DNA of 51,029 nt, counting the filler, from Bipalium vagum (taxonomy: Eukaryota), in NCBI GenBank assembly GCA_037834085.1. It is 3 parts of 3 records of this genome, joined end to end, with 100 filler letters (N's around TTAATTAATTAA, not from the genome) between each part and the next. Parts side by side here need not be neighbours in the genome. Positions count along the whole stretch, not along the records: positions 1 to 16,641 come from JBBMKC010101104.1; positions 16,742 to 33,020 come from JBBMKC010118543.1; 1 more part is not named here. One strand, 5' to 3'. Positions 1 to 32,599 of this stretch are shown here, in pieces; position 1 is the first letter of the stretch, and each line of letters opens with the position of its first letter. Under the pieces are notes generated by a model. That model made no database searches, was not told the DNA's origin, and saw only the letters and a list, made by a program, of their open reading frames with translations. Position numbers and translations under genes: made by a program.

Positions 1-1999
1 TATATAAATTACTATTAATTTGAAAAATAAATATTTTGTGATTAAAATCAGAATATCTTCAGAACTTTTGTAAAAATTATTAATAATTTTAGAGAATGTA
101 AAATGTTTTAAAATATTACTAATTTATAATTTAATGTAATGAAATTTTAATTAAAAGTAAATTCTGAAAATTTCTGTATTTTTGTCTGAAGAAATATTTT
201 AAAATTTATTTCTATATGTTTTCAATCTTATCATTGAGAAATTTCTTATTATTTAATATTCCTTAAGGTATCTGAGGTAATTGAAATTTAAACACATCAT
301 TAGATACTTTTGATAGTATATTCTGACGGCTGATTTAAAAAAGAATAAATTACACACTAATACATCACTTAATTTTTCTTTGATTGAGTTTTCTAAGCTC
401 TTAGAATATAATTTATGAAAATCATTAAAAAATTGTTGCTATAAAAATAAATAATAATGGTAATAATAATAGCAACAATAATAAATAATATATAATAATA
501 AAGATGTTAATATCAATCGGTTTATACTTAGAATTAGAAGACTTTTTTGAATAGATTTATTAAGTGATCAAAAAAATAATATTTAAACAAATTTTCTTAG
601 ACCTGGAAAACCTTTTTTTATTAAATTATTTTTTATTCAGCTTATTTTAAAAATTCCTCAGGTCTGACTGGCCTCCTCATAAACGAAGTATTTTCGTTAT
701 AATAATTTTGACATAATTAAATTTTATAAATTGAAAACATTTTATAAAAAAATTTATTTTACTTGAAAATAAAATTAATAAAAATCGGAATTAAGCATTA
801 ATTAACATTAACTACATCATACTGCGAAGAATTTTAACTAAATTTAGATATTTTATTTTTTAATCGTTTTTTTGAGAATCAAAATTAGTTTAATGAAATC
901 ATTTGAAATTTCAATTATGATTTACAGATATTCTTCAAAAGACATGCTTCTTTTATAATTTTTGCACTTGATTTGACAATTAAATGAATTATGACTGTCA
1001 AAGAAATAAAACAACTCAACACTAACTAAACTTTAAAAACATTTATAATCATATTTTAATTTTATAATTTCAAAAAAAATCTTCCTGAATAACAATGGGA
1101 GAAGAAAATTATAATTTTCTTGTTGAATTTTGTTAGTCAAACCAGATTTTCAGTCATAATTAATTTTTGATATTTAAATCTTTTCCAAGTCTTCATCAAA
1201 TATTGTTGGGGTAGCAGTATTCGGTTATTCAATTAAAAATATATTAAAGCCGAAAAATAGATTTCATTTCTGGCACAAAACTGTTAAATTTCATTATGCA
1301 AATATTTTGGGTTGTCAAAGATAATTTTCTTAAATAATCTCAAATCATTAATACAATTTTGGATTGTCATATATATAAATTTCTTTGCCAAAAATACTCA
1401 TTAATGCATGAAAAGTGAAAATGCAAAGTTCCAACTTGATGAATTAAAAATAAAAAGGGACGAAGAAATTCGTTGGAAATTGATTCTGATTCAGAATTGA
1501 ATTGAAGAAATGAATAGGTTGCTTTTTAATTACTTTAGCTATTATTTATAATTAAGATGTATAGTGAAATAAATAATGACACGGAGCAATTTAAATACAG
1601 AGTCTAATTAAAGTTATTTTCACTCTTTATTAAAATTATTTTTTATTGGAAAGTTTCCAATTTTCTTGAAACCTTTATTTTAATTTCAATTTTATTTAAT
1701 TTAGAGAACAGCTAATTTAATTTAAAATAATTTTTAAACGGAGAAATCTTAAATATTTTTTGATACGTGAATACTTAAATAATCTTTTTTCATGAATATT
1801 TTTATAAAATAAAAGTTTTAACTTTTAAAGCTAAAAAATATATTTTTTCTCTAAAATACAAATAATTGAATTATCTTAAACTATGGACAATGTTTTTTAA
1901 TATTTAAAAAAACAAAACTTTTAAAAATTTCGGGAAAATGAAAAAATTTAGCGGAATAATTTTTATTTCAGAAGTACTGTCAAAGAAATCTGTCCTTTT

Positions 2000-2510
2000 G
2001 GTAATCTCTGAATTAGTTCATTATATCGGATTATGTCTGAAAATGTGTTTCTGTAAGGTGGGTTTTTCAAAGACTAACAGAGGATCACAAGACGCGAAGA
2101 GTAAAATTTGCTTAGAAATCTGAATATTCATATTGTGGTGATTGACAAAAACTAGATGTCCAATGCTCCTTTTCCTACTCAGCACGATAATTCATACTTG
2201 GTTGCGTAGATGATGACCAGACAACAGTTGCCAAAGAACTATATCAGAGATGAAATCTCAACTAATTGTTTCCTTCAATTGTTGAAGTGATTTCCGTTTC
2301 AAGTTTTAGATCACAAACAATCTACTAGTGCTGAATGTCATATGGATTTCTTTCAAAAAAATATTGGATATCAAGAGAGTTGAACATTTAGACTTCTAGT
2401 ATGATATTGTTCGTCTCCATATGATTGTCACGATTCAAGTCTTTAGTAAAAAGCATGGAAATGAAAATCTAAGGCAAACAACTTTACTCTCCAGATATGA
2501 GAGTAAAAAT
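2000..2510 (+). mobile_element. Highly degenerate mariner transposase remnant (C-terminal half)
   Basis: YDIVRLH at 2400-2420 is a degenerate HDNARPH. YSPDM at 2485-2499 matches the YSPDLAP motif. The two are frameshifted relative to each other. Confidence 0.55.
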
Positions 2511-2539
2511 TAATCAGGTAAATGTTCAGAAATATGGCG

Positions 2540-2750
2540 TTTGACAGGAGAAAAATACAACAAGAATTTTCTTCCAAAGAATGCATAATTGCTTTCAACT
2601 AAAGGTCAAATAAAGAGCTTCTTCCAGAATCTGACTCATCATTAGATCTGTATTGGCCGAATTGAATCTTTAAAACCATTTGATAGCTGTAACGAATTTG
2701 TCTTCTTCAACTTCATCTGGCACTAAATTCATTTTTCAAATAATGGAGTA
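2540..2750 (-). mobile_element. Degenerate mariner N-terminal HTH remnant
   Basis: Minus strand reads IKWF*RFNSANTDL/NDESDSGR, matching the mariner WF.RF.SG..DL.DE.RSGRP motif. Confidence 0.55.
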
Positions 2751-5479: not shown

Positions 5480-6360
5480 TTTGTATATGACTTCGGGATA
5501 CCATAAAATATCAGCAGGGGTAGAAAAGATTCTACCAGGAAAACATAAACATAACTAAAATGTTTAAGAAAGATTATGAAATAATCGAAGTACAAAAATA
5601 AAATATACACCGAAATTTCATAACCGATGTAAAATAGGTTGATGGTGATGGATTTAAAAATAAATCTCATCTAACAAAGAGATGAGTGTGGCAAACTCAT
5701 CAGTTAGCGTATCAAATAATCTTATGTCCTCCGACAGAAAGGAAAAGCCAATTGGTTAACTTAAGGCACATGTTTTACTTAATGACGAAGCATTATAATT
5801 CTGGAATCATAAAATTCTTCTCAGATGAGAGAAGTCCTATCGTTCAAGACAGGAAAGTTAACAGGCAAAATACCGTTGCTATAATATTTCTGATGTCCAG
5901 ATGGTCATATATTAAAAGTTTCCGGCATCTTGTTTTGTTACTGGCTATCATATCTAGTAAGGATAAAGTCACCCGCGTCAATTTTACAAGAAAGGCATTG
6001 CAGGGAATCAAGAGAAATATATGAAAGATGGTTATGAAGCCTTGAATTGACAAAATAAGAGTGAAGAGAAAGTATGTAAGAGAAAGACAGGTCTGGCTCA
6101 TTAAGAAATATGTTTATGAAAATTTAACTTACCATTGGTCAATCGATTTCTGATTTCCTCTCAGTACAATTCCTTCGATAACTATCTATAAAGCATAGTT
6201 GAAGCTTAGGACACAGCAAAATCTCAGAGTACTACCAAGATTTTACAAGAACGCTCTCAAGAAGATAATGGAATATTTGAATCGAGCGGAGATAAAATGA
6301 GCATGTAGCAGTCTTAGTACAGAAGCGTTTGTATCATGTAAATTAGATAACATCGATAAA
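5480..6360 (+). mobile_element. Degenerate maT (DD37D-type) transposon remnant
   Basis: Motifs FFSDERS..QDRKVNRQN, KFPAS, VMKP*IDKI and terminal ACSSL. Same family as 12181-13170 and 23590-24010. Confidence 0.75.
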
Positions 6361-6889
6361 TCTGTGTAGCTTCATATTATATATTAATTTTTTATTTAGA
6401 TGCACTGAATACATCGTTTTATTTATATTGTTTTTTAAAATTCCAGACTCCTGAATATTAAAAATGTAAAAACTGTTGTAAAAATAGTTTTCAAAATAAA
6501 AAGGTGAAAAAACATGAAATTTTTTTGCTGAAAATATTTATCTATTTTTTCTTTTATTGAATTTTCAAAATTTTGAATATCTAAAATCATTGAAATTTTT
6601 TTAAAATCTGAAGTTAAAATATAAATGATTATATAAAAATGGAAAACTTTAATAAAGTTTGAAATTGAAAAATATTTATCAAATTAAAACGTTTGAGATT
6701 TTAAATTACAATTTTTACAAACAGATTTTCATGAAAAGAAAATATTTTATTTACATAATCATTTTTTCAAAATTCACGCTCATTTTAATTCATAATTTAA
6801 AAATCAATAAAAAAATAAATATCAAATTGATATAATTTTTATAAATATATATGTATTGATTTTTGAAAATTCCTAAGAATTTTTTTCTT

Positions 6890-7500: not shown

Positions 7501-7599
7501 GTTATCATCATGTTGGAATTCAGAATAAAACAGAATTATTTTAACTAAATACGTATTTGTAAAGGCTTTACTTATCGTAGTAGCTGGTAAGAAAATACG

Positions 7600-7810
7600 A
7601 AAATGTATATTAATTTTGAAAGAAAATCTTTTTTATTTTTTTTTGCCAAATGTAAAAAATGAAAGATAAAACCATTAAATTATTTCTGTGGGAAAACGTT
7701 ATTTGAACAATTAATTGTCGATGTCTGTGAAGAAACATCAAAGCAATTCTAAAGAAAACGAATTTTATAATAAAACATTTTAATATCTTTAAGTCTTTAA
7801 AATTTATTCG
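7600..7810 (-). repeat. Duplicated segment (second copy about 14370-14560); probable terminal kinase-domain exon of the receptor family
   Basis: 7681-7770 (tatttctgtgggaaaacgttatttgaacaattaattgtcgatgtctgtgaagaaacatcaaagcaattctaaagaaaa) aligns with about 14442-14520. The minus strand shows a ttttctttag acceptor followed by NCFDV../RHRQLIVQI. Confidence 0.6.
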
Positions 7811-9397: not shown

Positions 9398-10150
9398 ATG
9401 AAAATAATTATTTTAACAATAATTACGTTGCTTATCTTGTGCGAAATATGGGAAGCAAAGTTCATCTTTAAAGGTAAGAAAAAAGAAAAAGATTCAGAAA
9501 ATGAAGAAGTAAAAAAAGAATGTAAAATTAAAAAACTGGGGAAAAATGTAATAAACAAGGTTAAAGAATGTGTTAAAAATTTGAAAAAGAAAAATGCCAA
9601 TAAAGAACAAAATGAAAATGAAGTAAATGAAATAACCAAGCATAAAGAAGAAACGAAATCTGTAACTCAAGGAAACACATTTATAAAACCAACTCAAATA
9701 ATAATCAAAACCCAAAATGAAACTAAAATTCCAGATAAAGTAACAAAAGCTATGAAGATTAATAACAACGAGCAAAGTCAAATTCCAAATGAAAATAAAG
9801 TGACTGAATCTGTAACAGTTAATGTCAATGACGAAAATTCAACTCCACAAGAAAATCAAATGATACAATCTGTGACTGTTAAAGTAAAGGAAGAAAATCG
9901 AGCTAAAAATGAATATAAAGTGACTGAATCTATAACAGTTAAAATCAATGACGAAAGTCAGTCTCCAAACGAAAATCAAAGGATGGAATCTATGACAACA
10001 ACAAAAAATAACAGAAATGAAGATGAAGATGAAGACCCAATGACTGAGTCCGTAACCGATAACACTAACAACGAAAATAAAAATGACAATGAAAAAAATG
10101 TGCAAGAAGATATAATTAAAGCCACCATTGAAAACGATATGGACAAATAA
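9398..10150 (+). CDS. Intronless orphan secreted protein (250 aa) with Lys-rich N-terminal region and 6-7 tandem 20-aa N/E/T/V-rich repeats
   Basis: The longest intact ORF in the window. Signal-peptide-like N-terminus MKIIILTIITLLILCEIWEA. Repeats such as NENKVTESVTVNVNDENSTP. Upstream TATA and downstream AATAAA at 10152 and 10176. Confidence 0.8.
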   Translation: MKIIILTIITLLILCEIWEAKFIFKGKKKEKDSENEEVKKECKIKKLGKNVINKVKECVKNLKKKNANKEQNENEVNEITKHKEETKSVTQGNTFIKPTQIIIKTQNETKIPDKVTKAMKINNNEQSQIPNENKVTESVTVNVNDENSTPQENQMIQSVTVKVKEENRAKNEYKVTESITVKINDESQSPNENQRMESMTTTKNNRNEDEDEDPMTESVTDNTNNENKNDNEKNVQEDIIKATIENDMDK

Positions 10151-10374: not shown

Positions 10375-10690
10375 GATAATTTTAAAGATTGACCAATTGA
10401 TTTGTTCTGTAGAATAGAGAGTCGCAATCAACTGAAATACTCAGGAATAATTGATGACATACTGATAATGCTAAAGATATGATAAATAATAATAAATGGT
10501 TAATAATAATAATATCATTCATCAATGTAAAGGGTATATTTTTATCTGTTAAACTCAAAAATATCAGACCTTTCAAAATTATTTTCTTTTATAAATGACA
10601 GAATTATCTAAAAACGCAAACATACCGGGTATAATCATATAAGATAAGACGTATAAAATAAGATTAATTAAATATTACTGCAATAAAATT
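10375..10690 (+). pseudogene. Insulin-receptor-like FnIII-1 fragment (paralog b)
   Basis: Reads ILKIDQLICSVE*RVAIN*N..IIDDILIMLK...QCK...TELSKNA/TYRV. Nucleotide similarity to 13340-13530 on the opposite strand is clear. Confidence 0.6.
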
Positions 10691-11001: not shown

Positions 11002-11002
<1 letters not shown>

Positions 11003-11038: not shown

Positions 11039-11042
11039 TGTA

Positions 11043-13336
11043 CAGATGCTCCCAAAAGTAGGTTAGCAAAAGCACGTGTTTTGTATTTTAGCAGATATTT
11101 CTTAACAAAATAAGTTTAATTAGATGAAATATATATATACCTTGGATATTAAGGATTAAGACTAAATCAAATTTACTGGATACTGAGGAAAATTAGTATT
11201 TTTTTATTTATCAAAGTTAAGGTTAAAAATTTTGCCCATTCATAAATTAACAAATTTTTGAATCGAGTTCAGAGACAATTATACTTTAATTATTAAGTAA
11301 AATAAATTCAGAACTTATTCTCCAGTAGTTAAAGTATACTAATTAACTGTAATTAAAAAGAAATATTAGAGAAATATATACCTACATGAGCTAAATGTTC
11401 CCCATATCATAATGGAGCCCCATCTTTGGAAAATATTCCTAGGTGTTTGCGCGATGGTTGTAAAAATGGGGGTGTTGCTCGTAAAATTGGTAAATTTAAT
11501 ATGGTTAAAAGAATTAGTTTTTATTATAAAAATTCTCTTAAACAGCTTAATTTTTGGTCTAAGATATTACGGAGAAGTGAATTAGTGACATACCAAAAAC
11601 AGAGTCACGGCCGAGTTTATGTCTGTAAGAAAAGTTAAGAATGAATAGAATATAAATGTACCAAACTAACGTTGAATGCTCATGATAGTGTTATAACGGT
11701 ACGAGGTTGCATGACATCTAATGCTGTTGTTAAGATTATTATTAATAGCATCAGATACCTATCTTAATATATTGAAAGATGTAGCCATCCAAGATAAACA
11801 GACTGATTAAACCAGATTTTATGAATCAACAAAGCAATGTGCCCATCCACAAAGCCAAAAAAAGCATATTTACTTTTCCAGAGAAAATGTAAGTATTTTT
11901 CAATGGCCTCCACAAAGTTCAGACGGGTCTTCAATCAAAAATCTTTGGGCTATATTGAAGAAGTGACCAACATCCAATAAATATCACTGATTTAAGAACC
12001 TGTATTACAAAATGTTTGTATGAAATATCTGTTGAAAAATTTCGAAAGTTTGGACTTTCATTACCAAAAAGAATTTTCACAATGCACGCAAAAAATGAGA
12101 TCACTATGGATATTTATATTCTTGTTAACATACTTTTGATGAATAAATTTTGTAAAATTTTTCTTTCGCTTTTGATATTACAGGGTTTTTGTTGTAAATA
12201 TATAATGTTTTCAAACAAATATTATAAAAATAATTTTATAAAACTAATCTGACCATCACTTGTTTAAGTAAGCTAATATATCAATAATATCAATAGATCA
12301 AAAATAATTTTTAAAGTTTTAGACAGAAGATTGGTTTGGTTGCAGCAAACTAATAGTATACAACCCCTTCAAAAGGTTTAAGAAAGATCATGACAGTGAC
12401 AATGTAAATACCAAAAGTGCAGAAAGAGAAAAATCACTCAAAAAAGACTAAAACTCTCGTGGCCGATTTAAAAGAGAAAATTGATGTTGATGACTCTAAA
12501 GGTATGGCTGATTTCACCAAGGAAATAAATGTGGTCAAGTCAACAATTATTTTAGCAATAAAGGAAGACGTCGACAACTGTTAACAGAAAAATTAAATTC
12601 AAGCCGAAAACTTAAAGAACTGGTTTTGCTTAATGACATAAAACATGACAGTGCCGGGCACTTAAGGTTCTTCTCCGATGAGAAATACTTTTTTAAGACA
12701 AAATAATCAATCGGAAAAATGACTGCTGGATATGATCATGTATTTAAATTTTCTATCATCTGCCATTGAATTGACTTTCATATCTAGTGAAGGTAACATT
12801 ATGCAACCTTCTTTTTTCGACCAAGGGCTTAAATTAAAGCAGATAATTATATCACCACATTGAATACGGTTGTCAAACCCTGGATGGACGAGATAGCTGA
12901 TGGAAGATATCTCACCATCAAGTCATTACAGGTTGCTGTCAAAGGGGTAATGGCACATTTGGATAAGTAAGAGGTAAAACTAGCATGTAGCAGGTTTTGG
13001 CTTAGACTTGAAGCCGTTACTGCTGCTAATGAAGGTCACTTTGAATAATATTATTATGTAATTTTTCATATAGTTGTTTATCAATTTTTATTAAAATATA
13101 TTTATTACATCGCTCTATGTACATCGTTTTATTTGTTGTAAAATATTCCCAATTTATGTCAAATACTCTGTAGTTAAAAAACAATTTTCTGTGCGTCATT
13201 TTAATTTTAATATGTAATCCAGAATTATCAAAGTATATTTTTGAACAATCATTAAAATGTAAAATTCATTTTGGTTAGCATAATTCAGTCTTATATAAAA
13301 AACATAAAGTTTTAAACCTACTTTTGGGAGCAACTG
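11043..13336 (+). mobile_element. Degenerate Tc1 (DD34E) transposon containing a nested maT element
   Basis: TIRs CAG(A/T)TGCTCCCAAAAGTAGGTT are 21/22 identical, with TA at 11041-42 and 13337-38. Internal motifs: HDSVITVRGCMTSN, QQSNVPIHKAK and WPPQSSDGSSIKNLWA. Confidence 0.85.
12181..13170 (+). mobile_element. maT (DD37D-type) element nested in the Tc1, internally deleted
   Basis: Degenerate TIRs CAGGGTTTTTG.. / ..CAAATACTCTG flanked by TA. Motifs LRFFSDEK, INRKNDCW, ISSEGNIMQP.FF.QGL, VVKPWMD and ACSRFWLRLEAVTAANEGHFE*. Confidence 0.8.
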
Positions 13337-14686
13337 TACATTTCCCTGCTGATTAGATTTGATTGATAAATTCATATTATTATAATAAAGCATTTGTTAT
13401 TATTTCGGATATTTTATCATTATTAGTATGTCATCAATTATTTCTAGGTATTTAATCCGAGGACTATTTCAGTTAATACCTGTTCTCCATTCTCTAGAAC
13501 AACTCAATTCTTCAATTTTTTAAATTATCATTTATTATGAAATAAAATATTAATTAAAAAAATCGTTGGAAATTAGACTACGGTATTTCTTAATTTTAAA
13601 ATCTTAATTTTATTTAATTTTAATTTTAATGGTTTTAGTATAAATATAAATAATATAATAATAATAAAATTATAATATAAATAATAAATATTTACAAATT
13701 AGTTATGTACTTTTTAAAACTTTATTAAACAACATATGTACCTTTACATCTATAAACTTTTTCCATTTTTCATATAATCAATTTTTATCCATGAAAAATG
13801 TCTTGGATTTTTGGCTAAAAATTGTAACAAATGTTTTTCAAAATCCTGAATTGAACTTAACTCAACTTCGTTAAGAGAGTTATGCAGACATCTTAATTAA
13901 TAATAATCTGAAAGTTTCAGATCCGGGCATTACGATGGATACATAATTATATTATTTTTATCCGATTTAATAGAAGAGCGTTTTTAAATATGCAATGATT
14001 ATGGGTACTGATAGATATAATCTTATGATGGTGCAGTTGTGTTTTGTTCATTTTGACACAGATTTAAGAATCAAAATGTTATACAAAGAATAAATGCAAG
14101 GACCTCTCAGAGTAAGTTCAACTGATGGGACAAAAGGGAAGGAAGCACCCATATTAAATATATAAAGAAGCAAAAGGAAAAAGTTACTTAAAAATATAAC
14201 CCACGTAATGCAATCGCTCAAATATTGTCTTCTGAGTACCACTAATCTTATAGTAAGTTGATTTTGAGACTATAATTCATTTTTATTTAACAAATTCACT
14301 AAATCATGTTCTTCGAATTTTTAAGGAAGCCCTTATTAAATACACAAAAAAGAACAAAATCTAAATCTAAATCAATTAAATTAAAAAGAAATTGTAATTT
14401 ATTCGGCCAAAATAAATTGACTTGCAAAAAATTAAATTATTTATTTCTAGGAAAATATTATTTGATCAATTAATTGTCCATGTCTGTAAAAAACATCAAA
14501 GTAATATTAAAGAAAATAATTTTTGTAATATTCGATTTCTAATTTTTTAAAAATTACTCTTAATGAAAAATATTTTAAAAGTATATGCTGAAATATTTAT
14601 TTAAAAATTTTTAGTCAAATTTTTTCCATTAACACCACAAAATTAAAACTAAAATAAATTTCATATTAATATAAATATTAATATAA

Positions 14687-15762
14687 TCCAGCTGTCAATC
14701 CAATTTTGAAGGTCTTCAAAGGAACTGAACCGCTCTCCGGAAAGTACTGATTGCAAAGAACGGAACAAATGGTAATCCGAAGGAGCGATGTCTGGTGAAT
14801 AGGGCGGGTGAGATAAGACTTCCCATTTTGTACCTTCTAAGTACTTATGTATTTACAACTGAATTAACGTGTGGTTTTGCGTTATCATGTTGTAAAATTA
14901 TCTTTTCGTGTTTAGTCACCCATTCCGGTCGTTTTTCATTCAAAACTTGCTTCAAACGATCGATACAGTTCACCAGTTTGAGTTTGAGAAGATTTCAAAA
15001 AATCATAATAGATCACTCCTTTCTGAACATACCAGATACACAACATAACTTTCAAACCGTGGATATTTTGTTTCAGTGTTGATGGACCGGGTTCACCTGG
15101 CATCACCCAAGCTGCTTTGCGTTTTGGATTGTCATAACGAATCCATTTTTTTGTGTCCTGTAATAATTCGATCCAAAAAACTTTTCCTTTTTGTCTCTGA
15201 AGGAGGATATCACAAATTATTTTTCGCCTTTCAATCCATCTTTCTGTCAATTCATGTTGGATTCAAATTTTTAATTTTCTAATAATTCCTAAAGCTGCCA
15301 GACGTTTTTAAATGCATTGTTGAGTCACATTTCATGCGACAGCCAGATCAGATTGTGTTTGACATGGATCTTCATCCAACAGCCTTCTCAAATCTTTATC
15401 TTCACATTGTTTTTATGGCTTCCCATGCTCCTTATCGTTTGTATCACATTGGCCATTTCTAAAACGGCAAACCAATGTTTACATGTGGTAATCGAAGGAG
15501 CATGTTCTCCATATGTATCTCCAAGCAAGTGGTGTGTTTCTGCTGCAGTTTTCTTTGCAATAATGTAATGTAAAATTACTTCCCGCAAATGTCGTTTATT
15601 TGGGATGAATATTGACATTTTGAATTCCTATAATATTTAAACAAGGAATATTAAAACAACTGTCTCGTGATATTATTAATTATATGATATTTCTGTTTAT
15701 AAATGCAAACATAATTTTTATTATCATTTTGAAAAAATCCGGAGTCATAGTTGTACACCTAA
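14687..15762 (-). mobile_element. Mos1-like (mauritiana-type) mariner, copy A, 3'-truncated
   Basis: Motifs MSIFIPNKRHLREVILHY, WIRYDNPKRK, KVMLCIW, HDNAKPH and PYSPDIAP. One TIR (TTAGGTGTACAACTATGA) ends at 15762, followed by TA. Confidence 0.92.
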
Positions 15763-15845
15763 TATATTAAATAACTGATTTAATCTAACCAGTAGAGGCA
15801 AAGTCAGTCTGATCACAAATATTCTCCAAATTTCAGTATAAATAT

Positions 15846-16641: not shown

Positions 16642-16741
16642 NNNNNNNNNNNNNNNNNNNNNNNNNNNNNNNNNNNNNNNNNNNNTTAATTAATTAANNN
16701 NNNNNNNNNNNNNNNNNNNNNNNNNNNNNNNNNNNNNNNNN
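16642..16741. other. Scaffold gap with artificial six-frame stop linker
   Basis: N44-TTAATTAATTAA-N44. Confidence 0.97.
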
Positions 16742-18792: not shown

Positions 18793-20749
18793 CAAAACCA
18801 AACCCAAAAAAATTATTTCACGCTTTTTATGTTAAATTTTCGATAAAATCCTTGATATTTTTCTGTCCAATTATCCAATTAATGATAATAAAACGATAAA
18901 TATTGTTTCGTTTAAAATGATCAATAATGTAACGATAACATATTAAATTAATAATGAATATTTGAAAATGAATAATGCATAATTTTCGTACAGAAATATT
19001 GAGAAAAATGCAAAAATGAAAAATAACTCACTTAGACTAAGCATAATATCCATTTAACTAAAAGTAAAAAATTCCTACACCAATATTTTATGAAAGTAAA
19101 CTAATCGATTAACAGGTTACTATATGCATAGTAATTTTTTAATCAATATCATTACTAAGTCTGACTTAAATAATCGATCCAGTGTTTGTTGAATAACGAT
19201 TTGATAGAAAATTAGAGAATGTAATTGCCTTATAACATAAATTAAATATAATTTCCTTATTTGTTCTGACGGATAAGTGGCTAACTGATTGAATGTAACA
19301 CACAGTGTTACCAATAACATGGGCGAATGTGAACTACTGCGATCGTTGAGACACGCCAGAAATCTTCGATAGTATTGCTTAGTAAACGGCCATGGTTTTG
19401 ACAGTTGATTGGAGAAATCAAGCTAAAGCACAAATCAATCAAAATTTTCTTGATCATTATTGAAAAACAGTAAGTGTTTTTTTAATTAAATTTCAACGAA
19501 TTCCAACTGTTTGATTTGTCTTATAAACAATCAACTGTGTGATGCTAATGTTGGTAAGTTAATCACAACAAGTGCCTCCAACAACCAATTGGAGCGATGA
19601 GGAGACAGAAAATTCGTTGATAATATTTGCAATCACTTTTCAAAACTGCTGGCGATTAGATTGTCTACTGTCCAAAGTCAAAATTATCATAACTCAAGAA
19701 TTTCTCTCTGGTGAATTTTTAACTATTTGATTTCTATATATTACCAAATCATGAGAGCTTTTGCTTTTGCGTGTTTTTCTTTTGGTTTTCTCTTTTTCCT
19801 TTTCTATCGGAACGGCTTTTCGTTTTTCTCACTCTTGTTTTCTTGGAACGAGAGAGGGGGGGGGGCGTTTCTCAGCTGGTTCCAATTTAATTCTTTTCTG
19901 GTATTAGAATTTTTTTTGACAAAGTCTACACCATTCAGTAAAATACGAAATCGATACTATTGTTTTTTATTGTGACGAAAAAATATCGTTTTTTTTCTGT
20001 TTTGTGGGAGAATGATTTTTTTTGTTTCTTTATCATCAGACTTTTTTATTTCTTAATTTTTCGTAGATTGTTGATTAGGAGACTTTTTTCTGTTACCTGT
20101 GTATTTGATCTTAAAACTTAATAAATCATTATTATTACCAATACTCATTCGCACATTTGCGTAACACCATTTTTGATTAACAAAACCAGTTTTGGATGGT
20201 ACTTTAAATTGATGAATGAAAAAGGAAACCGGAATGATTTTAAGATTAAATGTATCTTCAACTAACTTTTTTTACTTTTTATAACATCACCTTATTTCCG
20301 GTAATGTTGTGGTTCATCTTCGTAAATTCAAAATTTTAAATTTAAACCAAAATTTTGATTATTACACAATTATCGTACATATGATAAATGATACCAATCA
20401 TAATTAATTTTTAGGATCATGGTCAAAGGGGAATAACAATACTATCAAATATGGGACTGCAGAATAAAATCATCAATACAATTTCAATGGCAAGTTTAGT
20501 TGCTTCGGATACCGATAAAATAATGATCGACAGCAGCAATGCCGACGACAAAGAAGACAGCTCCCGTTGGACAATTTTGATGAAGATTTATTATGAACTA
20601 TTGATTGTAAAAATAACTATCTGTAATATTTAACGATATTCGTTGTTATTATCTTGTAAAAAGATCCTAATTGTATTTATCTGGCATGTTAATTTTTTTA
20701 AATAAAATTCTGTTTATATAATCTCTCTTATTTTGCCTTCTTCATTGAG

Positions 20750-21560
20750 TTTCCCCAAACAAATTCATGCAAATAGGAAGCTCGGCACATAAAATTGTTC
20801 ATAATTAGTCTCCGTTGTATAAGAAACAGTATTACAACATTAGCTTAGTTCCTTTAATTCTCTAATATTTTCTTTATGTCTATTTTCAATAATATTTTCT
20901 TTTACAACAGTTGCTTTGTCAAAGGGATCGTACAACATTCCTTTTTCAGTTAATTTTTTTAATAATTTCTTTTAATAATTACATCGAAGTACCTGTCAGT
21001 TTTGTAAGCTAAACTGCTACCTTTATAACGTGATAGAAATGGCAGTAGAAAATGTTTTGCTTCGAATTTTTCATACACTCTCTTTTGGTGTTCCGCTTAG
21101 AGGTGCTCTTCCATATCTTTTTCTCATACTCCCATTTCATCCACAAACTTTTTCAATATCGACCTCAAGAATTGTTTTTGCAAAATGAAATCTTTCAGTA
21201 ATGTTAGTTTCAATATTTCGATTTTCAAGAATTAATTGTATCTGAACAAAGACGCTCCAGTTTCATTATTTATGGTCTTTAAGATGATTTATTGTTTTCG
21301 AACAATCTTTTCCAATTTCATTTCTGATTATTATTTGTACCTGATTTCTTAAAACATTTTTACTTTCGTACATTTTCTTTTTACCAGCAATTAAACCCGT
21401 TTCTTATACTTATTAATTACTGATCGAACATTTTGGGATTTCATAACCAGGTCAGTTGATATTGGTGAGAAAGATTTACCATTTTCATATTCCTTTCTTG
21501 TCAAATTACGCATTTAATCATTTCCGTTTAGTCCTGGAAATATTTCACATAGAAATACAT
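20750..21560 (-). mobile_element. Degenerate IS630-like Tc1-superfamily transposase
   Basis: HTH-like RKEYENGKSFSPISTDLVMKSQNVRSVINKYKKTG and FVDEMGV..RYGRAPLSGTP..KIRSKTFSTAIS, which fits the FIDE.GFN...R.YGR...G.P family. TIRs were not identified. Confidence 0.6.
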
Positions 21561-22175
21561 TGAATACCTATTTTTTAAATTTGTTCCTTTTCATTTTTAA
21601 GGAAACGAATTTTCAATGAAAAGACATTTTAGAGTTAAATATTGTGAAAAACATTGAGGAATACCACGATACAAAGTATTTTTTCTAATTTATAAAGTAA
21701 AGGGGTACAAGATAAAAATATAGAATGAAGAATAACATGAAAAATTGTGTTTGGCTGACCAAAGGGTCTGACAATAACAATAATTAATACTACTACTAAT
21801 CAATAATAATTATAATAATATAATTATAAATATTAATTAATAAAAATATATGTTAATAATAATATTATAAAAATGATAATTTTTCATCATAATTTTCTTA
21901 TCTTGACAATGTCGAATTACCAAGATCAGATAGGCAATTAGGAACAGATTTAGAAATTTACATTTCCTGGTGTGAATATTGGTCTACGACTGAGTAGATA
22001 TCTGGTCAATATAAAATCCTTAATGGACGGTCCAGTAATTTATTGTTAATGAGATTTATTGAAAATCTACGAATTGTGTCAAATAATTACGAAAATTATT
22101 GCCGAGAAAAAAATATTATAATACACGATGCTTGCGAAAAATTGTTAAAATATTGTTAAACCAAAAACTAATATA

Positions 22176-23436
22176 TTAGGTGTGCAACTATGATCCCGGC
22201 TTTTTTTAATAAGAACATAAAGCTATTTATTACAAATTTTATTTTAAAACATTCCATTGGAAACTACAACCTTTGCCCACCTTTCAGGTAATGAATGAAT
22301 TCCATGAAAGAAAAACTCTGGTTCTTTAGATGAAATTCAGCTGTCAATCCAATTTTGGAGGTCTTCAAGGGAATGGAACCGCTCTCCTGAAAGTGCTGAT
22401 TGCATAGAGCGGAACAAATAGTAATCCTAAGGAGCGATTTCTGGTGAATAGGGCGGGTAAGATAAGACTTCCCACTTTTTACCTCCTAAGTATTATTTAC
22501 AACTGAATTAACGTGTGGTCTTGCGTTATCATGTTGTAAAATCATCTTTTCGTCTCTAGTCACCCATTCCGATCGTTTTTCAAATTGTTTCAAACGAATT
22601 AATTGTGATCGATCAAGTTCACCAGTTAGTGTTTGAGAAGATTTTAAAAATTCATAATAGATCACTCCTTTCTGATCCCACCAGATACACAACATAACAA
22701 CACAACATTTTTGGACATTTTGTTTCGATGTTGATGGACCGAGTTCACCTGGCATCACCCAAGCTGCTTTGCATTTTGAATTGTCATAAGGAATACTTTT
22801 TTCGTCTCCTGTGATAATTCGATGCAAAAAAATTTTTCCTGTTTTGTCTCTGAAGAAGGACATCGCAAATTGTTTTTTGACGTTCAATGCATCTTTCTGT
22901 CAATTCATGTGGGATCCAAATTCCTAATTTTCGAATAATTCCTAAAGCTGCCAGACGTTTTGAAATATATTGTTGAGTCACATTTAATGCGACAGCCAGG
23001 TCAGATTGTGTTTGAAGTGGGTCTTTGTCCAACAGCCTTCTCAAATCTCTATCTTCACATTGTTTTTGTGGCTTCCCATGCTCCTTGTCGTTCGAATCAT
23101 ATTGGCCATTTCTAAAACGGCAAAACTAATCTTTACATGTAGTCATCGAAGGAACATATTCTCCCTCGGTATCTCGAAGCAAGCGCTACGTTTCCGCTGT
23201 AGTTTTCTTGGCAAAAAAGTAATATAGAATTACTTCCCGCAAATGTCGTTTATTTGGGTTGAATATTGACAATCGCTATAATATTTTAAAAAGGCATATT
23301 AAAATAACTGTCTCGTGACATTTTTAACTATATGACATTTTTGTTTATAAATCAATTCAATATAATTTAGATATACATGCAAACAAAATTTTTATTATCA
23401 TTTTAAAAAAAGCCGAAGTCATAGTTGTATACCTAA
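22176..23436 (-). mobile_element. Mos1-like (mauritiana-type) mariner, copy B, full length (1261 bp), frameshifted
   Basis: TIRs TTAGGTGTGCAACTATGA.. / ..TCATAGTTGTATACCTAA with TA on both sides. Motifs WIPHEL, FLHRIITGDEK, VMLCIWWD, HDNARPH and YSPEIAP. Confidence 0.95.
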
Positions 23437-23589
23437 TATTTAAAGCAAAAGATACATAAAGACGATTATTAATGATTGATTTGTTCAAAAAAGTCTCATT
23501 TAGCAGCAATAATTGCTTTAACTCGATCTCAAAATCTGGAGAAAGCTCTAAATAGGTTAACCTTATCCAGTGACACAAATACTTTACTA

Positions 23590-24010
23590 ATCTTTACTTT
23601 TAAAGACTTGGGTCATTATTATTAACATCTCTTTCGCAAACGCTCTACAGATAATAATCTAAAGGATTAATCTCCAGTGATGTAAGAGCCCACATATCCT
23701 TTGGCCAGAATTCAGGAACATTAGCCCAGAGAAAATCTTGATCCTTCTTGGCATTATGTGCGGGTGCACCGTATTGTTGGAATATAAAATGACGTCTATT
23801 GTTCACGTTCTTCATCTATGCACAATGACGTTCCTCAAAACCTCTAAGTATACATCACTGTTTATCTTTAAGCCCTGAGAAAAGAAATAAGGGCCCACGA
23901 TATGCCCTTCATTGCTGACAACACCCAAAACCATAGTTGTAGTGAGAAATTTAATACGTTAACAACATAATAATAACATAAGTAAGAGGGTCAGTAGAGG
24001 GTCACGAGCT
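23590..24010 (-). mobile_element. maT (DD37D-type) catalytic-domain fragment
   Basis: TMVLGVVSNEGHIVGP/YFFSQGLKINSDVYLEVLRNV, FIFQQYGAPAHNAKK, EFWPK and LTSLEINPLDYY. Confidence 0.8.
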
Positions 24011-24789
24011 AATAGTTACACGGTTTTCATAATATTATAAAACGTCACAATTGTTTCATACTTATAGTATATCAAATTTCATTAAGTCCAATCCAATCAT
24101 TAAGCTATTTATTCCAAGCCAAGGTTAATATGCTCAGAAAGTGTGATGTAAATGTTTTAATGATAAAAAAGGGTTTTATTGTCAAATCAAACCTGAAATC
24201 AGTATCAGTAAATATCGGATTTGAGTTATGTTGCTCTCAAAACTTATTCTCACTGATAACAATAAAATTATAAAAAATAAAATATTAGGAAAATTGAAAA
24301 GTAAAAATTATTTTTCGGTTTCACTTATGAAAAACAGAAAAGTAAAGATTTGAATAATTTTTTCTTTAAAGAAAACGTAGAAAAAAATGTCCATGAAATA
24401 TTTATTATTACATATTTTTGGAAACGAATAATGATTATAATATTAAGATTGGATGTGGTTAATCAATAATTCTACTTTAGTATCTTATAAAATTATGTAA
24501 AGAGAAAATATAATTTAAAATTAAATCCTGGATATAAAAAAAGTATTAATGGATTTTATCTCGGAAAATCATTAATTGTTTTAATTAAAAAGAAGATAAA
24601 ACTAAAATTAGAAAAAATATATAATGAAAAAATTTAATTTCACTCCTTATTTCATTTTACTTTACGAAAAAATTTAATTTTTTTAATTAAATTGTGCACA
24701 TCTTTTTCAAGTTGCTGAGAAATGTAGAGTTTTTACCTTTTCAAGGTTTAATTTTCTAAAAATATTAATAATTTATTATTAATAAAATA

Positions 24790-25110: not shown

Positions 25111-25265
25111 TAATCACCATACACATAAGTACCGCAATTTTTTTAAGGTTATGTTGTGAACAACTACCACAAAAAATCAAATATCTTAAAGTAGATTAAA
25201 AGATTTTTTAATCTGAAAAAGTATTTAAATTTTCAAAATAAATTTAAAATGCTAATAATAAATAA

Positions 25266-25267
<2 letters not shown>

Positions 25268-25336
<69 letters not shown>

Positions 25337-25350
25337 AAGAAGAAGAAGAA
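25268..25350. repeat. Compound (AAT)n(AAG)n microsatellite
   Basis: An AAT run switches directly to an AAG run. Confidence 0.95.
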
Positions 25351-27610
25351 TAATCATATATACATTTGATAATTTTGAAATGAACATTTTTTAGAAAAAC
25401 CTAGAAGAAAACCCCATTTTAATGGAATTTCAAAAGTTTTGGTGGGTAGTTTCAAAAACAGAGTACTATGAAAATGAAAGTCATTTTAAAATCTTTATGA
25501 TGACTGATAATTATTAAACTTACAAACAACAAATCAATGAATCTAAAACGGAATGAATCCTTACAATTTTAGGAACATGACAAAATTGAGAACTTCGTTA
25601 TAGGCTGCACCTTAATACTTCAAGTATTATTGGTGTTAAAAAGAAAGAAAAGATATATTCATTTGTTCGAAAAGTCACTTTATTTTTTAGTAAAAGGCGA
25701 AATGACTTTCCGAACAACCTTTTCATTTGTTGAGTCTTCTATGTTTTTTATTTAAACAAATCCCATTTCTTAACCTATATAAACTTACTTTAGATATTCA
25801 GATTAAAAATAAAATTCAGATTTAAAATAAATTGTTATTTTGACCTTATTTCAAATATAACTAACGTTACTGTTTACCTTAATTTAGAACAAGATTAATG
25901 CACCATCATAAATATCATTTGAGGTCTTCTAAAGAAGTTATCATTTAAGAATAACGAGTTGCAAATTTATAAAGATGTTTTAATTCTAAAATGGACCTAT
26001 TTTAGAAAATTAAATTTTACATTGTGCAGGTAATTCTAAAAATCAATTTTCTTAATTTTAAAATATTGTTCCTTCTTGAAAAATTGGAAAACTTTTTTAT
26101 ATTTAAATTCATTAATAATGCTTGTTTGAAATCTCTCTTCAATTCCGTAACCCCTCTAAGAGGTGATAAACTATTTTATTATTTGTTATATTGTTCAATC
26201 TGATATTTTTAGAGTTATTAATTATTTATTTTATTTTAAATAAAATTTTATTGGCTATAAAAAAAATTATTTTTGTTAAAAGATTTTGATAAATTTCAGA
26301 TTTGATATTTCGAAATAACAAAGGCAAATATTTTTAAACAACATATCCCTAAGTTTTTGTGGAGTTTTCATTTTATGAAACATTATTTTTCACTTATTTC
26401 CATATCATTTTTAATCTCTTACTTTATTGTTTTCGAATTTTATTATTTTCAAGATATGTTTTGATGTTAAATGTGCGAACCTCTAAAACAGCGCTTTTAA
26501 GCATAATGTTCTTGGATTAATGTTCTTTTTAAATTCACGTCCTTTTGTATGTGTTATAAAGTCTCCTTACACCTCATGGTTCCTGGACAACAGTATTAAA
26601 TGAAGTCGAACAAATATTCTGTATCCAATAAATTCAAGACGCGATCAATCCAATATTTGACATTTATAAACTGAAATTTTATTAATGCACTTGCACTTGA
26701 TAATTTTACATTTGCGTCTCCATGAAATATTATTTTATATCGTTTATTTTCCTTTATGCAAACAGGATTGTACATATTTTTCAAAATAAGCGCTTTCAAA
26801 TTTTTAAAAACGGAAAAATAATTTTTTTAGATATTTTTTAAACGGAATTCTTTTAGTGAGGCGGCGTAAAATTGACACCAGTTGTCTGATCAGCATAAAA
26901 TAATTTGTATGACTAAGACACAGCTCAAAATGTATACTGGCGAGTAAGACTAATAATAAATGCGGAAAAAGTCGAACTGTTCTTATTGTCGCTCAATATC
27001 CATCAATTCGTGAAATTACAACAAAACAACGCCTCAGATGTATCAAACTGTCACGCAGTTAATTATCTGGTTTAATGAGCTATAAGCAAGTTACATACCA
27101 ATATTTTATGCTTGTTTACTAAGAATGTTTAAAAATACGATTAAAAACAGCAAAAAGTATTTGTAGGATCATTAAAAGTAAAGTTCATGCGATATTACTT
27201 TCTTTACAAAAAATTATGTGTAAGCAGTTCGATAATAGTATCACATATGATAAAATTTTAATTTAATTCAATGTTCTTTTAAAAATTCATTAATTCATTG
27301 AAGCCCGTTTAATATCATTTCTTTAATTTTCTTGAATGGTTTAGATGGATACAAATTTGCAGTCCAGTGAAACTTAATGGGTGATGATTTACAGACCGTT
27401 ACATATCAAGCATGTTTTCCAGATAGAACTACAAGCATCCATATACTGCATAAATATGTATAAGTCAACTCAAAAAAAATATAGATCGTTTAACATTTTC
27501 GAAAATTCTTTTATTTTATATGAAGCAAATATTGATTAAAAAACATTTTTAACTAATAGAGGATTATTATCACTAACGGATTTTGCCGAAGTATCAAAAG
27601 AAAGATAATA

Positions 27611-28750
27611 CAGTCGAACCTCTATTTAACGATGCTTGAGCGCGATCCCGACAAAAAAGGTAAAGGGAAACCTTAAATAAAATCTCTAATTAACGACATT
27701 ATTTTTAATAACAAATAAACATTTACATTAAATTTAACCTTTATTTAACGACACGTAATTTGTTTTAATTTTTTAAAATCATTAAGCAAACATTTCAAAT
27801 TATGATTTATATATATTATGATTTATGTATTTATTGATTCATCATTATTTATTCATAATTATTGATATTTAGTTCATTTATATTTGTAGAAATAGAATTC
27901 CGTGTATTGGAGCCAAAACATTTAAAGAGACGCATCTTGAGATCGTATAAAAAAACAGATTATCGAAATTGCATCTAAGATTTCTAGCCATACAGAATTG
28001 GCCAAACGTTTTGGAGTTCCCAGAACCACCATTATTGGGATTCTAAATTCCAAGACATCAATCTAAAATGCCACTATGGTAGATGGTAATGGGCTAAAAC
28101 GAAAAAGAATATTTCAAAGTCTACATGAATGTCTCGATCAGGTGATTCTAATGTGGTTTAAACAATCTAAAAACCACAACATTCCAGTCACTGGCCTTCT
28201 TTTACAGGAAAAAGCCAGAACTCTTGCAACAGCTTTAAATATAAACGACTTTCAGGCAAGCAACGGATGGCTTCAAAAGTTTTTGCAACGTCATTCCATC
28301 GACTTCAAGTGCTTTCAAGGAGATGCTGGTTCAATTAATATAACTGATTTCAATAATTGGTAGCAAGATGTGCTCCAAGAAAATATTGGGCAATATTATC
28401 CAAATGATGAATTCAAGGTGGACGAAACTGGTCTTTTCTGGAAACTGTTGCCGGAAAAGACTCTGACTTTCAGAGGAGAACGATATACGACAGGCAAAAT
28501 GAGTAAAGAGAGAATAACAGTTTTGGTTAATGATGAAAGTGGTGATTTAGATAAATCAGAATTAGCTCCTGTTTTAGCTAAGGCAGCATTTAACACTATG
28601 GAAATTGTGCGACGTTATATGCAAGAAAATGTTGATGATCCAGTGATAATTAATGCTTGTGATATTATTTATAATGCTTCATGATATTAATTCTAAAAAT
28701 CAATTAAAAGAAATGAAACAAACAACTTTATTTGATTTCAATAACTAAAG
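27611..28750 (+). mobile_element. pogo/Tigger transposon, internally deleted, right TIR not found
   Basis: TA followed by the TIR CAGTCGAACCTCTATTTAACGA, with subterminal TTAACGAC repeats. HTH ELAKRFGVPRTTI. CENP-B HTH (WFKQ..IPVTG.LLQEKA..FQASNGWLQKF). DETGLFWKLLPEKTL..KMSKERITVLV is joined directly to a C-terminal tail. Confidence 0.9.
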
Positions 28751-29666
28751 GATTACCTAGATTGTGATCGATCGATAAAAATGTGGATTTTAATAAAGTA
28801 TCATAATAAAATCGATCTTGGCAGAAACGTAAACTTTTGTAAAAATTATTTCAATCGATTCATCGTTTATGTGATTATAAATATGCCTTGATAAACCACA
28901 ATCTTTTCTCTCACTATTTAATTATTGGAGCCAGTGTGTTAGTTGATAAAAGATTTTTTGAACTACGCTAACCCATTTTCATTAACTATGTTTACATAAT
29001 AATATTACATAATAGTAAAATGGTACTTGATTTAAGATAAACCAAAATTATAAACTTACAAAGATACATATTTTTATATAGTTAATTTAGATAAACATTT
29101 TCCTAACCACCATTAGATGTGAAGGTACAGATAAGGAAGTTTTAGTATTATATTACACATCAGCCTTTTATGAACCATCTTAATCAGAAGTATTTATATC
29201 ATTCTGAATTTTTATTAATATTGTTATTTGTTAAAGAAAGATTATTAAAGAAAGTGTCAACAGTGATAGAAAAAAATGTATTGATATAGAGTAAAATTAG
29301 ATCTGTTCAATCAATATTTTTCGTTAAAAGTGAGAAAAATTATGCTAAAATTCAAAGATTAATATATTTTTATTTGAATAAGATTTGCTGTTCAAGTGTC
29401 ATCGGATGGACAGTCCTGAAGTATCATGTCAAACTCCATAATTTTCCGAAGGTGCTGCCTCGCATTGTGTTAACATTTTTCCAGACTTTACACACTCCCT
29501 ATTTTCTAATGCAAATGACTATGGAGATCAGTCAAATTTTCATTAAAAACGATTTAATATTACCCTAATATATGAGAAATATTATTCACTTTATATCAGC
29601 ATATTATGTACTACTCTTATTTTTCAGTAATCAGTTTTACAAATATGAACAAAATAAAAATACTTC

Positions 29667-29670
<4 letters not shown>

Positions 29671-29717
<47 letters not shown>
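29671..29717. repeat. (TAT)n microsatellite
   Basis: About 15 units. It accounts for the poly-Ile ORF 29606-29794. Confidence 0.95.
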
Positions 29718-32599
29718 GTTTAAAAAAGCCTCTATTTTATTGGTATAGATTCAAAGTTAAATACATTTACATGTTCAAAGAACTTGTTTTGTAACTAAGG
29801 TAACTCATTGAGTAATCATTTGACACTCTTCCTTTAAATGAATCATTTAATAAAATATTATTTTAGGGTTAAATCATTACATAAGTTTTTAGAAACATCA
29901 ATATAATTCTGAAATCTAATATCAAGCCAAAGTCTTTTATGATAAATATAAGAAAATTACTGCATCCAGGTAGAGCTGCTTATACTTCGCTATCCGTAAC
30001 TTATTTATTTTGTCGAATTTGCTCAAATAGTTAAAAAATAAGTTAAATTAATTAAAAAAAAGAGTGTTTTGCATAAGCAGCAAAGAGTACATTTCATTTT
30101 TAACAATTTCATTACACTGTCATAAATTATCAATTATGGATTTTCGGATTAAGTTCATCTTCAGTTGAAACATTTAAATAATGCTCCACAAACTCAGTCA
30201 TTTTTTTTCACTGAAAGGCTAAACATCTATTGGTCATAAGTTAAGATTTTCAATATATGTGGGTTTTTTTTCACAAACCCTCTTACAGTTCGGACAGTAA
30301 CTTTGATAGATTATCTTTTTTTAATAATTAATATTTTAGACTTTGGAAATAATAATAAATCATTCAAAACTTTTTGTACTTGAAATTTTTAAATTGTCTA
30401 GAGTGCGACCTGAACTTTTAATTACTATATTGTCTTTTAAATTCTCGAAACAAAATCTCGTAGAATTTACAGTGTGACTTAATATATCGATTGAGGTAAA
30501 AGTATTGCAGCTTTTTCATATACTTACTTTAAAGCGAAAATACCGACTGATATTTGTATATTTATTGATAAACAATAATAAGGTAGGTAAGCCTCTTTAA
30601 AATTAAAGTTATTTATTATTTTAGATTTGTTTTAATAATATTAAACGTTATTTATAACTACGGCGAAAATTTGAACTTGATTACTTATTGAATAAAAGTT
30701 ATGAATATAAGAAAATAATTTATTTAAAAATATGACTAAAATTACTTAAGTAGTGGACATATCCTCAAGAAAATCTTAAATGTGTACTTTGACAGATTTA
30801 AAAGAACGAAGTTTTTTCTGCCACCATATTAAGATGTTAATTATTAAAATTTATTTTGAGGTTAACTTTTAATTAATTTTTATTTTGTACCGGGTTTTTT
30901 GTATGCCCCAAAACTGTTCAATTTTGACATTTGGCTTTAATTAAGCTTGACAGGTTTCAAATATGGTTTTAGATAAATTTTAAATCACCATGAGGAATTA
31001 TAAAATTCTTCCGAAATGGTCTCGTCATATTTTTATAAATCCCTTTTCATGTTCTGCAACAGGCTTTTCAGAAAAGAAAAATGATACTTATAACTCATAT
31101 TTTTGCGAGGTATGCATGTGTTGTGGATAAATGTCCTTGGACTCGTACAGAAATACGAATGACATTTTTTATTACTGTTTATTTAAACCTTATAAATTAT
31201 ATTGGTTATTAGAATTTTTTTCAATATAAACACCTGCTTCCAGACAGTTTTTCAATTGATTTACAAATGAAATAGGACCATTTTAGAAGAAAAATGCATC
31301 ATTTTCATTGAGAAAATCTTTAAATTGGAATCCAAGCAAATAACTAGCAAGTTACATACTAACAGCAAATCTTACTAAACCTAATCAATAGAGTCTTTTT
31401 TTAAAAATGTCAATTGTTGAATAGAATAAGTTGAGTAAATCCAATACTATGAGATACACGATAATAATAATATTAATAATTAATAATAATAATAATTATT
31501 ATTTTTCTTATTATTATTATTATTATCAATCATGATGCACACTGAAAACATTTTTATTCATCAATAATATTTACAGAATGATAATAAATCCATTAAACTC
31601 TATTTTTCATATACTTCGTAAATAACTGAAAGAAAACTTTTATTTTATTTTCAATATTTTGGGTTATTAAATAATTAAATTGTTTAATTTACCAGTTCGA
31701 TAAAATGCTTCCTGTCTTATCTTTTATGCTATCAGAAATTAACAAATACATTTCACATTTAAAACAAATTATTATTATTATTATTACTATTATTTGTTAT
31801 TTTAGGAATAATTGAAACAAAGTTTAATGAAAATATTGATTTGAAAAATTATAAATTTAATGAATTGCGGATTTTGCAAAACCGCGAAATTTATTTTTCA
31901 TTACAGGGTACATTTGGCAAAAAATAATCAAAGGAAAGCGCAGTTCGTCAAAACTGCATTCTAATTTAATTTTATATTATATTATTAAAAATATTACAAA
32001 ATATTCATAACGTTAATAATATTCGAAATTCCACTGGAGAGTTATAATTCCTTTTTGGAATTATTATTATTATTATTTTAAATCTCGAAAATATTATATC
32101 TTAAAAATTACCATTTTTAAAACACCTCAAAGATTTTTTAATTCCAGGAAAAATTCTCTTTAATTTTAATGTAAAATTCTCGAAATAATTTTAATTTATT
32201 TATATTTCCATAAATTAAAATTGAATAATAAATTTTAATAAAAATTAAAAAATTAAACAAAAATTAATTTTAACAAATTTCAAATGTATTATTAAAACAA
32301 TAATTAAATAATTATAAAAACCTGTTACTATTTATTAAGAATGCAGAAAGTCATGTGAAAAAAATATTGATTTTGTTGTTATTTTTTGAAGACTTATTTT
32401 TTTTTACAAATGTAATAAGATCAGACTTTTTATTTACATACATATACCCCAATAATTATCCGTACGATTACAATACAAATAAAAAAATAACAATTTCACT
32501 AAAAAAGAAAACACTTATTATAAAATTCTATTGTTTCCAAGTATAATATTAAAATAAATATAATATTAAAAAAAATAATAATATTAATAATAGCTATCC

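Follow-up and report, generated by a model that had tools for sequence, protein, structure and literature searches.

The window analysed here is a stretch of 51,029 nucleotides, filler included, joined from three records of the Bipalium vagum genome assembly GCA_037834085.1. An initial annotation had described its region 1090-31320 as a tandem cluster of at least six decayed insulin receptor (InsR)-like receptor tyrosine kinase genes, referred to below as copies A-F. Our analysis favours a transposon graveyard with one dead, intron-poor InsR-family copy on the + strand at approximately 25.9-30.3 kb (copy F), possibly with remains of another between 21.9 and 24.7 kb; the other 'copies' would be chance motifs in AT-rich DNA. 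We put the probability of this reading at roughly 60%. Taken by itself, copy F is quite probably a real InsR-family remnant, and the order L1 to FnIII-3 at InsR-like spacing is supported by statistics that are custom and composition-adjusted throughout. The original assignment to a decayed InsR/IGF receptor family is thereby retained for one segment; for the others it is borderline or unsupported. The base composition of the window is animal-like (18-34% GC per kb), and transposon remnants, with approximate intervals, cover ~37% of region 1090-31320 (11,312 of 30,231 bases).

The evidence for copy F comes from a profile of 63 InsR sequences. A metagenome motif scan yielded 62 loci, 11 of them with InsR frames above 1,100 residues (1,161-1,565 codons), one of which retrieved 120 InsRs; 57 of these and six locus frames made up the profile. 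The window was scored with a forward scan, written for this analysis, that permits frameshifts and nucleotide decay and adjusts for local AT composition. Shuffled DNA, column-permuted profiles and scrambled domain orders served as nulls, and the counts below are the nulls that reached the real score; in local tests, the scan was scored with the place given. In simulations, the scan found pseudogenes that were ~25-35% identical to the consensus when intact and had since taken on substitutions at up to 20% of positions and indels at up to 1.5%, while copies near 20% identity with at least 20% decay dropped to null scores.

Copy F emerged from a collinearity test in which 26 sub-profiles were summed along diagonals of the transposon-excised window (36,149 nt), with no place chosen by eye. 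The best diagonal, on the + strand, ran through L1 at 26.0-26.35 kb, the Cys-rich (CR) and L2 regions at 27.07-27.35 kb, FnIII-1/2 at 28.8-29.2 kb and FnIII-3 at 30.07-30.17 kb. It ranked top, at the same place, in all eight settings and also in both settings of an earlier diagonal scan. Scrambled domain orders reached its score in 0-3/60 cases and permuted profiles in 0-2/24 in eight of nine settings; for shuffled DNA the counts in the eight settings were 0, 0, 0, 3, 6, 6, 11 and 18 of 44. No kinase sub-profile lay on this diagonal. The second-best diagonal never rose above chance, since 22-44 of 44 shuffles did as well. Collinear domain order at the spacing of the InsR family, which had been proposed for all segments, was found at +25,916-30,260 and in no other segment.

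Two pieces of the diagonal also stood out individually (table 1). The L1-like and FnIII-3-like pieces are each the best match of their own domain in the window, on one strand and 3,888 nt apart, compared with approximately 3,760 nt expected with inserts. The L1-like piece contains a 65-codon open stretch (26006-26200), with stops before it and two frameshifts after it, and is identical to the consensus in 23 of 120 columns (~20%). With full AT adjustment it scored 17.4 bits in the forward scan, against 6.3 ± 2.3 for shuffled DNA (0/30) and 7.2 ± 2.6 for column-permuted profiles (0/100); with strong adjustment, L1 at +25910-26342 gave 13.9-17.4 bits, whereas the nulls peaked at 10.9-11.4. The FnIII-3-like remnant, identical to the consensus in 17 of 89 columns, scored 13.5 bits against 7.8 ± 1.8 for shuffled DNA (1/30), and permuted profiles reached it in 2/100 window-wide and 0/100 locally; strong adjustment at +29900-30230 gave 12.7-13.5 bits (0-1/30). 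The pieces between them are weaker. Joined from CR to L2, they were reached by 5-9/200 permutations and 4-12/100 shuffles, and the L2-like region has nine stops in its best frame over 27102-27610. The FnIII-1/FnIII-2-like stretch is not significant alone, and its sub-profile matches fall on the top diagonal.

The kinase subdomains reported earlier were not recovered, and no catalytic kinase motif is in place: HRD[LI] and W.[AS]PE do not occur in region 1090-31320, and the sole G.G.FG, at 12946, lies within a Tc1 remnant. Local tests of the kinase parts of copy F were not significant (C-lobe 15-38/100, N-lobe 87-100/100, transmembrane-juxtamembrane (TM-JM) 47-94/100), and the set of features that marks a receptor tyrosine kinase (TM helix, NPxY and a kinase with GxGxFG, VAVK, HRD, DFG and APE) could not be demonstrated in it. 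Two other placements of a kinase were rejected, one at 25.5-26.5 kb and the other, as a single-frame TM-kinase whose N-lobe scored below all nulls, at 26.15-27.16 kb.

The stops and frameshifts of copy F are present in the DNA, as in a pseudogene, and a pogo/Tigger-type transposon is inserted within it. Assembly or base-calling error was rejected as the cause of the breaks: the public run X1, possibly made from the very sample that was assembled, has contigs identical to 25400-27634 and to 28709-29640, without a single substitution or gap, so the breaks in those two intervals are not base-calling errors. It is highly improbable that copy F is instead part of a living spliced gene, be it a decoy without a kinase or an InsR of divergent sequence, with the stops, frameshifts and pogo element lying in introns. 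A 24-nt stretch bounded by AG and ended by GT does open the L1 frame, and kinase-less decoys are known in insects, according to excerpts of PMC7253209. The domain spacing, however, leaves scant room for introns outside the CR region, the matching pieces themselves contain stops and frameshifts, and non-repeat open frames of the + strand span 65-92 codons at their longest. Such tight spacing points to few introns, if any, and would be compatible with a retrocopy.

A more serious challenge is that the window holds no receptor gene at all, only AT-rich intergenic DNA and transposon debris in which every InsR-like piece, copy F included, arose by chance. We regard this as unlikely, and the results that count in its favour, and hence against copy F, are as follows. 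All standard searches were blank. Pfam, the PDB and the protein databases gave no significant match to the L-domain, FnIII or kinase profiles that the initial annotation had led us to seek. For Pfam, this covers 39 stop-read-through frames (24 of the claimed copies and 15 between transposons); the L1-like piece had no Recep_L_domain match and the FnIII pieces of copy F no fn3 match, although the power of Pfam is low here, since a transposase-type HTH match was obtained in only one of eight decayed Tc1 intervals. Searches by hmmsearch and tblastn with the 63 InsRs reached a best E of 0.10, not beyond the reversed control. A phmmer search of copy D against 1.84 billion representatives gave 0 matches, word-indexed protein searches with the L2 piece of copy C and the L1 piece of copy F returned 12 and 48 candidates, all with E above 10, and the Atlas held no usable match. 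Seven PHROGs queries yielded nothing or unrelated families, and two window open reading frames (ORFs) were absent on exact look-up. In the PDB, phmmer of the L1 piece (25916-26200) had IGF1R (1igr) as its sole match at E ≤ 10; this match is weak (E 5.2) and not independent, because the interval was picked after scoring with the InsR profile. The other pieces had no family match in the PDB, and three of them matched unrelated proteins (E 1.2-3.5).

The custom statistics also depend on how they are set. Local Viterbi scans found nothing, forward scans with no or moderate composition correction put no domain above the null, and whole-gene forward scans were not significant (3-9/60 and 3-20/30); in a chain test, nulls equalled or exceeded the real score in 5/28 and 1/28 cases. 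The tests spanned thirteen domain models and three adjustments; significance varied among settings, and the signal required strong AT adjustment. Thus the L1-like piece was significant in four settings with alpha 0.8 and in none of eight with alpha 0.4 or 0.6, shuffles reaching its score in 0/80 and 12-62/80, respectively, and its hhalign P was 0.44. For the FnIII-3-like remnant, the count was 17/100 at weaker AT adjustment, hhalign P was 0.053 and the PDB match was to an unrelated protein. The copy F diagonal was reached by permuted profiles in 16/24 in the remaining setting and in 0-13/24 when L1 was omitted; the higher of its shuffle counts point the same way, and the excised interval 29300-29560 was judged to be an insert by eye and is unconfirmed by Pfam. 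A control stretch at 50.5-50.9 kb also gave an L1-like local match (0/25; 1/100). This alignment (50481-50900, +) lies outside region 1090-31320, is not among the top window-wide L1 matches and could be chance or another remnant.

Nor were InsR words or hhalign matches enriched over controls. Most of the motifs listed in the initial annotation are literally present (table 1), but they are strewn over both strands, and PNG and LC.NEI do not occur in region 1090-31320. The short motifs occur at chance frequency when judged by 200 local shuffles (I.W 51 versus 47.4, IS.W 4 versus 3.3, NYC 6 versus 5.5, L.P..Y 4 versus 7.3, and NP.Y 7 versus 4.3, P 0.16). Only [LIV].NIEE[YF] (2 versus 0.02) and PPLDV (1 versus 0.00) exceeded the shuffles, and this excess is post hoc because both patterns were derived from this sequence. 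The 5-mers common to at least 8 of the 63 InsRs occurred 23 times, compared with 20.1 ± 4.0 in shuffles and 25.3 (scaled) in a control region. Conserved InsR words at three conservation levels gave 120 versus 112 ± 10, 23 versus 20 ± 4 and 5 versus 2.7 ± 1.4, with the control region equal or higher. When 90-residue windows were aligned with hhalign, 14 of 899 real and 12 of 892 reversed windows scored at least 22, after removal of windows whose alignments were driven by microsatellites (33 real, 40 reversed).

Two stretches fit two incompatible InsR domains each. At 26826-26958, where the collinear model needs the CR region, lies a look-alike of a kinase activation loop that came top of 1791 hhalign windows (30.9 versus a reversed maximum of 27.9) and failed the forward tests (2-30/30 shuffles). 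The stretch 21,900-22,110 fits FnIII-2 and L2 equally, so at least one of these readings is due to chance. As a general caution for analyses of this kind, six-frame translation of AT-rich DNA produces, by chance, motifs that look persuasively InsR-like, even two readings of a single stretch that exclude each other. What chance alone accommodates poorly is that one collinear diagonal ranks first in every setting and in most of them outscores the permuted-profile and scrambled-order controls, and that L1 stands approximately four standard deviations above both nulls at full adjustment.

A possible second copy at 21,940-24,670 (+), candidate copy E, is borderline. Its first fragment (21940-22099) aligned to L2 with an hhalign P of 0.005 and 35% identity over 46 columns, and as L2 it was top of the window in six of six settings (0-2/30 shuffles, 1-3/20 permutations), its range having been chosen post hoc; as FnIII-2, incompatible with L2, it gave 0-3/100. 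The second fragment (24273-24668), at a place chosen by eye, gave 1-3/100 for TM-JM and 3-22/100 for FnIII-3 in local tests and was not significant window-wide (100/100). The joined pieces gave 2-3/200. For copies A, B, C and D, permuted profiles reached the score in 10-84/100 with the place given, and one test of copy D was reached by 1/100 shuffles but 10/100 permutations. Profiles seeded with single copies found no sibling beyond the edge of the null; the profile seeded with FnIII-1/2 of copy F ranked copy D first, within the null (10.4 versus 9.5 ± 1.9).

The mutual similarity claimed among the segments reduces to two short pieces (100-170 nt), both adjoining transposon ends. In a DNA self-comparison, 26 tile pairs exceeded the control maximum; almost all of these were transposon pairs, the clear exceptions being two short duplications (table 1). 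One of these, the 'copies b and c', has an inverted partner that stops 22 nt short of a Tc1 inverted repeat, and its InsR fit was not significant. No third copy was found for either duplication and the mismatches lack codon periodicity; we infer local, transposon-associated duplication. At the protein level, 4 of 6840 frame pairs of segments exceeded the control maximum, with nothing family-like among them, and one match, of 30 residues, pairs 16166-16256 (+) with 19883-19802 (-) (score 70 versus a control maximum of 47).

These results bear on a more ambitious reading, in which the lineage multiplied its InsR into a hyper-divergent birth-and-death family and the window is a tandem cemetery of at least six pseudogenes, only the best preserved being visible to canonical profiles. 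We consider it quite improbable. It would suit the borderline second copy, which lies just upstream of the supported one on the same strand, the two occurrences of [LIV].NIEE[YF], the first rank of the hand-read copy D (though within the null), the two short non-transposon duplications and the fall of simulated copies to null scores at ~20% identity and at least 20% decay. Against it, the second diagonal is at chance and copies A-D are unsupported even with the place given, so that neither the count of six paralogs nor a tandem cluster of several family-matching copies was borne out. The segments share no protein-level similarity beyond the two short pairs and the 30-residue match, no kinase catalytic motif is in place, and among the 8 of 501 pieces listed there was no long contig at 80-95% identity over the non-repeat parts of copy F. 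Public protein searches, which have low power for such queries, returned no intact paralog, and a lineage-wide expansion is not supported. The gaps at 16642-16741 and 33021-33120 are each 100 nt long, with a 12-nt all-frame stop linker mid-gap; adjacency across 16.7 kb is consequently unproven, which weakens the reading as a single cluster. The six-copy array is unproven, neither shown nor refuted, and very divergent, heavily decayed copies would escape the scan. Were it true, it would depart from what is usual in animals, namely one to a few InsRs each (in some insects as many as four, according to excerpts of PMC7253209), and suggest receptor diversification under turnover.

Under the favoured reading of one dead copy, an already fast-evolving, AT-biased InsR gene may have been duplicated or retro-duplicated, and the duplicate would have lost its function. 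Copy F would then have gathered stops and indels, later been hit by transposons and been split by pogo, and would make no receptor. If copy F alone is real, it is an ordinary pseudogene that hints at a past duplication of a fast-evolving InsR gene in this genome.

Compared with the InsR/IGF1R family (e.g. PDB 1igr, the Tubulanus (P0002) and Lingula (P0013) sequences and metagenome locus L047), copy F is alike in the order and spacing of L1-(CR)-(L2)-FnIII-1/2-FnIII-3 on one strand. It differs in its ~20% identity to the consensus and its AT-biased residues, is broken by stops, frameshifts and the pogo insertion, and has no demonstrable transmembrane or kinase part. In three metagenome contigs, an insulin receptor is complete or nearly so in a single frame (L047, 258-4952; L031, 563-4963; L027, 3587-7915; all on the - strand); these represent transcripts or intronless copies from the hosts. 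EGFRs lack FnIII domains, and the FnIII-3 match of copy F argues against that family, the profile set used here consisting of InsRs. Flatworm EGFRs, L-domain receptor kinases as well, have expanded independently, to six in Schmidtea and eight in Macrostomum, and one copy has a kinase that is probably inactive, according to excerpts of Barberan 2016 (PMC4914847); those copies differ in being intact and having introns. Insects have extra InR copies, some intronless and retroposed and some without a kinase (SDR/DR2), with up to four in Cicadellidae (excerpts of Smykal 2020, PMC7253209). As described there, the duplicates and decoys are intact and expressed, whereas copy F is broken. The listings of our searches of an open-access library showed no report of such an InsR expansion in flatworms, and excerpts of PMC8662651 and PMC11957544 add nothing on InsR copy number.

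Table 1. Features of the window, with positions counted along its whole length.
Feature	Position	Strand	Remarks
L1-like domain remnant, copy F	25916-26342	+	InsR-family pseudogene (probable)
Cys-rich-like region, copy F	26837-27239	+	weak; local test 1-9/100
L2-like region, copy F	27123-27551	+	weak; local test 10-21/100; on top diagonal
FnIII-1/FnIII-2-like stretch, copy F	28757-29160	+	by eye; contains ILIKY and PPLDVK; local tests 28-97/100
FnIII-3-like remnant, copy F	29960-30260	+	
Possible kinase C-lobe remnant, copy F	30869-31336	+	by eye only
L2-like (or FnIII-2-like) fragment, candidate copy E	21940-22099	+	
FnIII-3/transmembrane/juxtamembrane-like fragment, candidate copy E	24273-24668	+	contains NPGY and WILSR
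IYDNPKL	1380	-	
[LV].NIEEY	2992; 21640	-; +	
NCTII	14038	-	
NPGY	24524	+	
WILSR	24550	+	
ILIKY	~28790	+	
PPLDVK	29107	+	
NYC			6 occurrences in region 1090-31320
Short duplication	7609-7792	+	partner 14375-14550, next to mariner end; core 7674-7772/14431-14530, 83/98 identical
Short duplication ('copies b and c')	10375-10526	+	inverted partner 13529-13362 (-); 123/151 aligned bases identical
Decayed mariner	14685-15779	-	Transposase_1 E 3.6e-18; 84% identity to mariner 22173-23453
Decayed mariner	22173-23453	-	both inverted repeats; Transposase_1 E 5.7e-18; interrupts candidate copy E
Pogo/Tigger-type DNA transposon	27611-28744	+	within copy F; HTH_Tnp_Tc5 E 8e-16, CENP-B_N E 3.6e-5
Short genome-wide repeat	25747-25900		directly upstream of L1-like piece

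Besides the two mariners and the pogo element, several Tc1-like pieces lie in the region. With matches to Transposase_1, HTH_Tnp_Tc5, CENP-B_N and DUF4817, inverted repeats and related copies, the elements of the window are ordinary decayed copies of the Tc1/mariner and pogo/Tigger groups. The left end of the pogo element reads TA and then CAGTCGAACC, its right end was not seen, and many further contigs of the public run align to it at ~89-92% identity. At 11039-13340, inverted Tc1-type terminal repeats 2.3 kb apart enclose two different Tc1-like remnants, the inner of which resembles 5616-6434. For the repeat at 25747-25900, 35 contigs have loose ends at 25747 and 46 have a differing letter at 25851; it is AT-rich and occurs once in the window, the public run contains dozens of contigs related to it, and it is possibly a miniature inverted-repeat transposable element.

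The GC-richer stretches at 19100-21700, 15900-16350 and 1950-2800 look like decayed ORFs, had no Pfam or PHROGs match and are possibly old mobile elements. Among the transposons, an intact single-exon ORF of 250 residues (9398-10150, +) has a signal-peptide-like start and three [VM]TES.T repeats spaced 40 residues apart. It gave no convincing Pfam or PHROGs match, was negative on exact look-up in a collection of 15 billion, and is probably a lineage-specific secreted protein. Ser/Thr-rich, exon-like open frames on the - strand between 34203 and 50160 (34203-34646, 35240-35791, 39759-40175, 43925-44149, 48850-49272 and others), four of which were scanned with no convincing Pfam match, form one probable long spliced gene.

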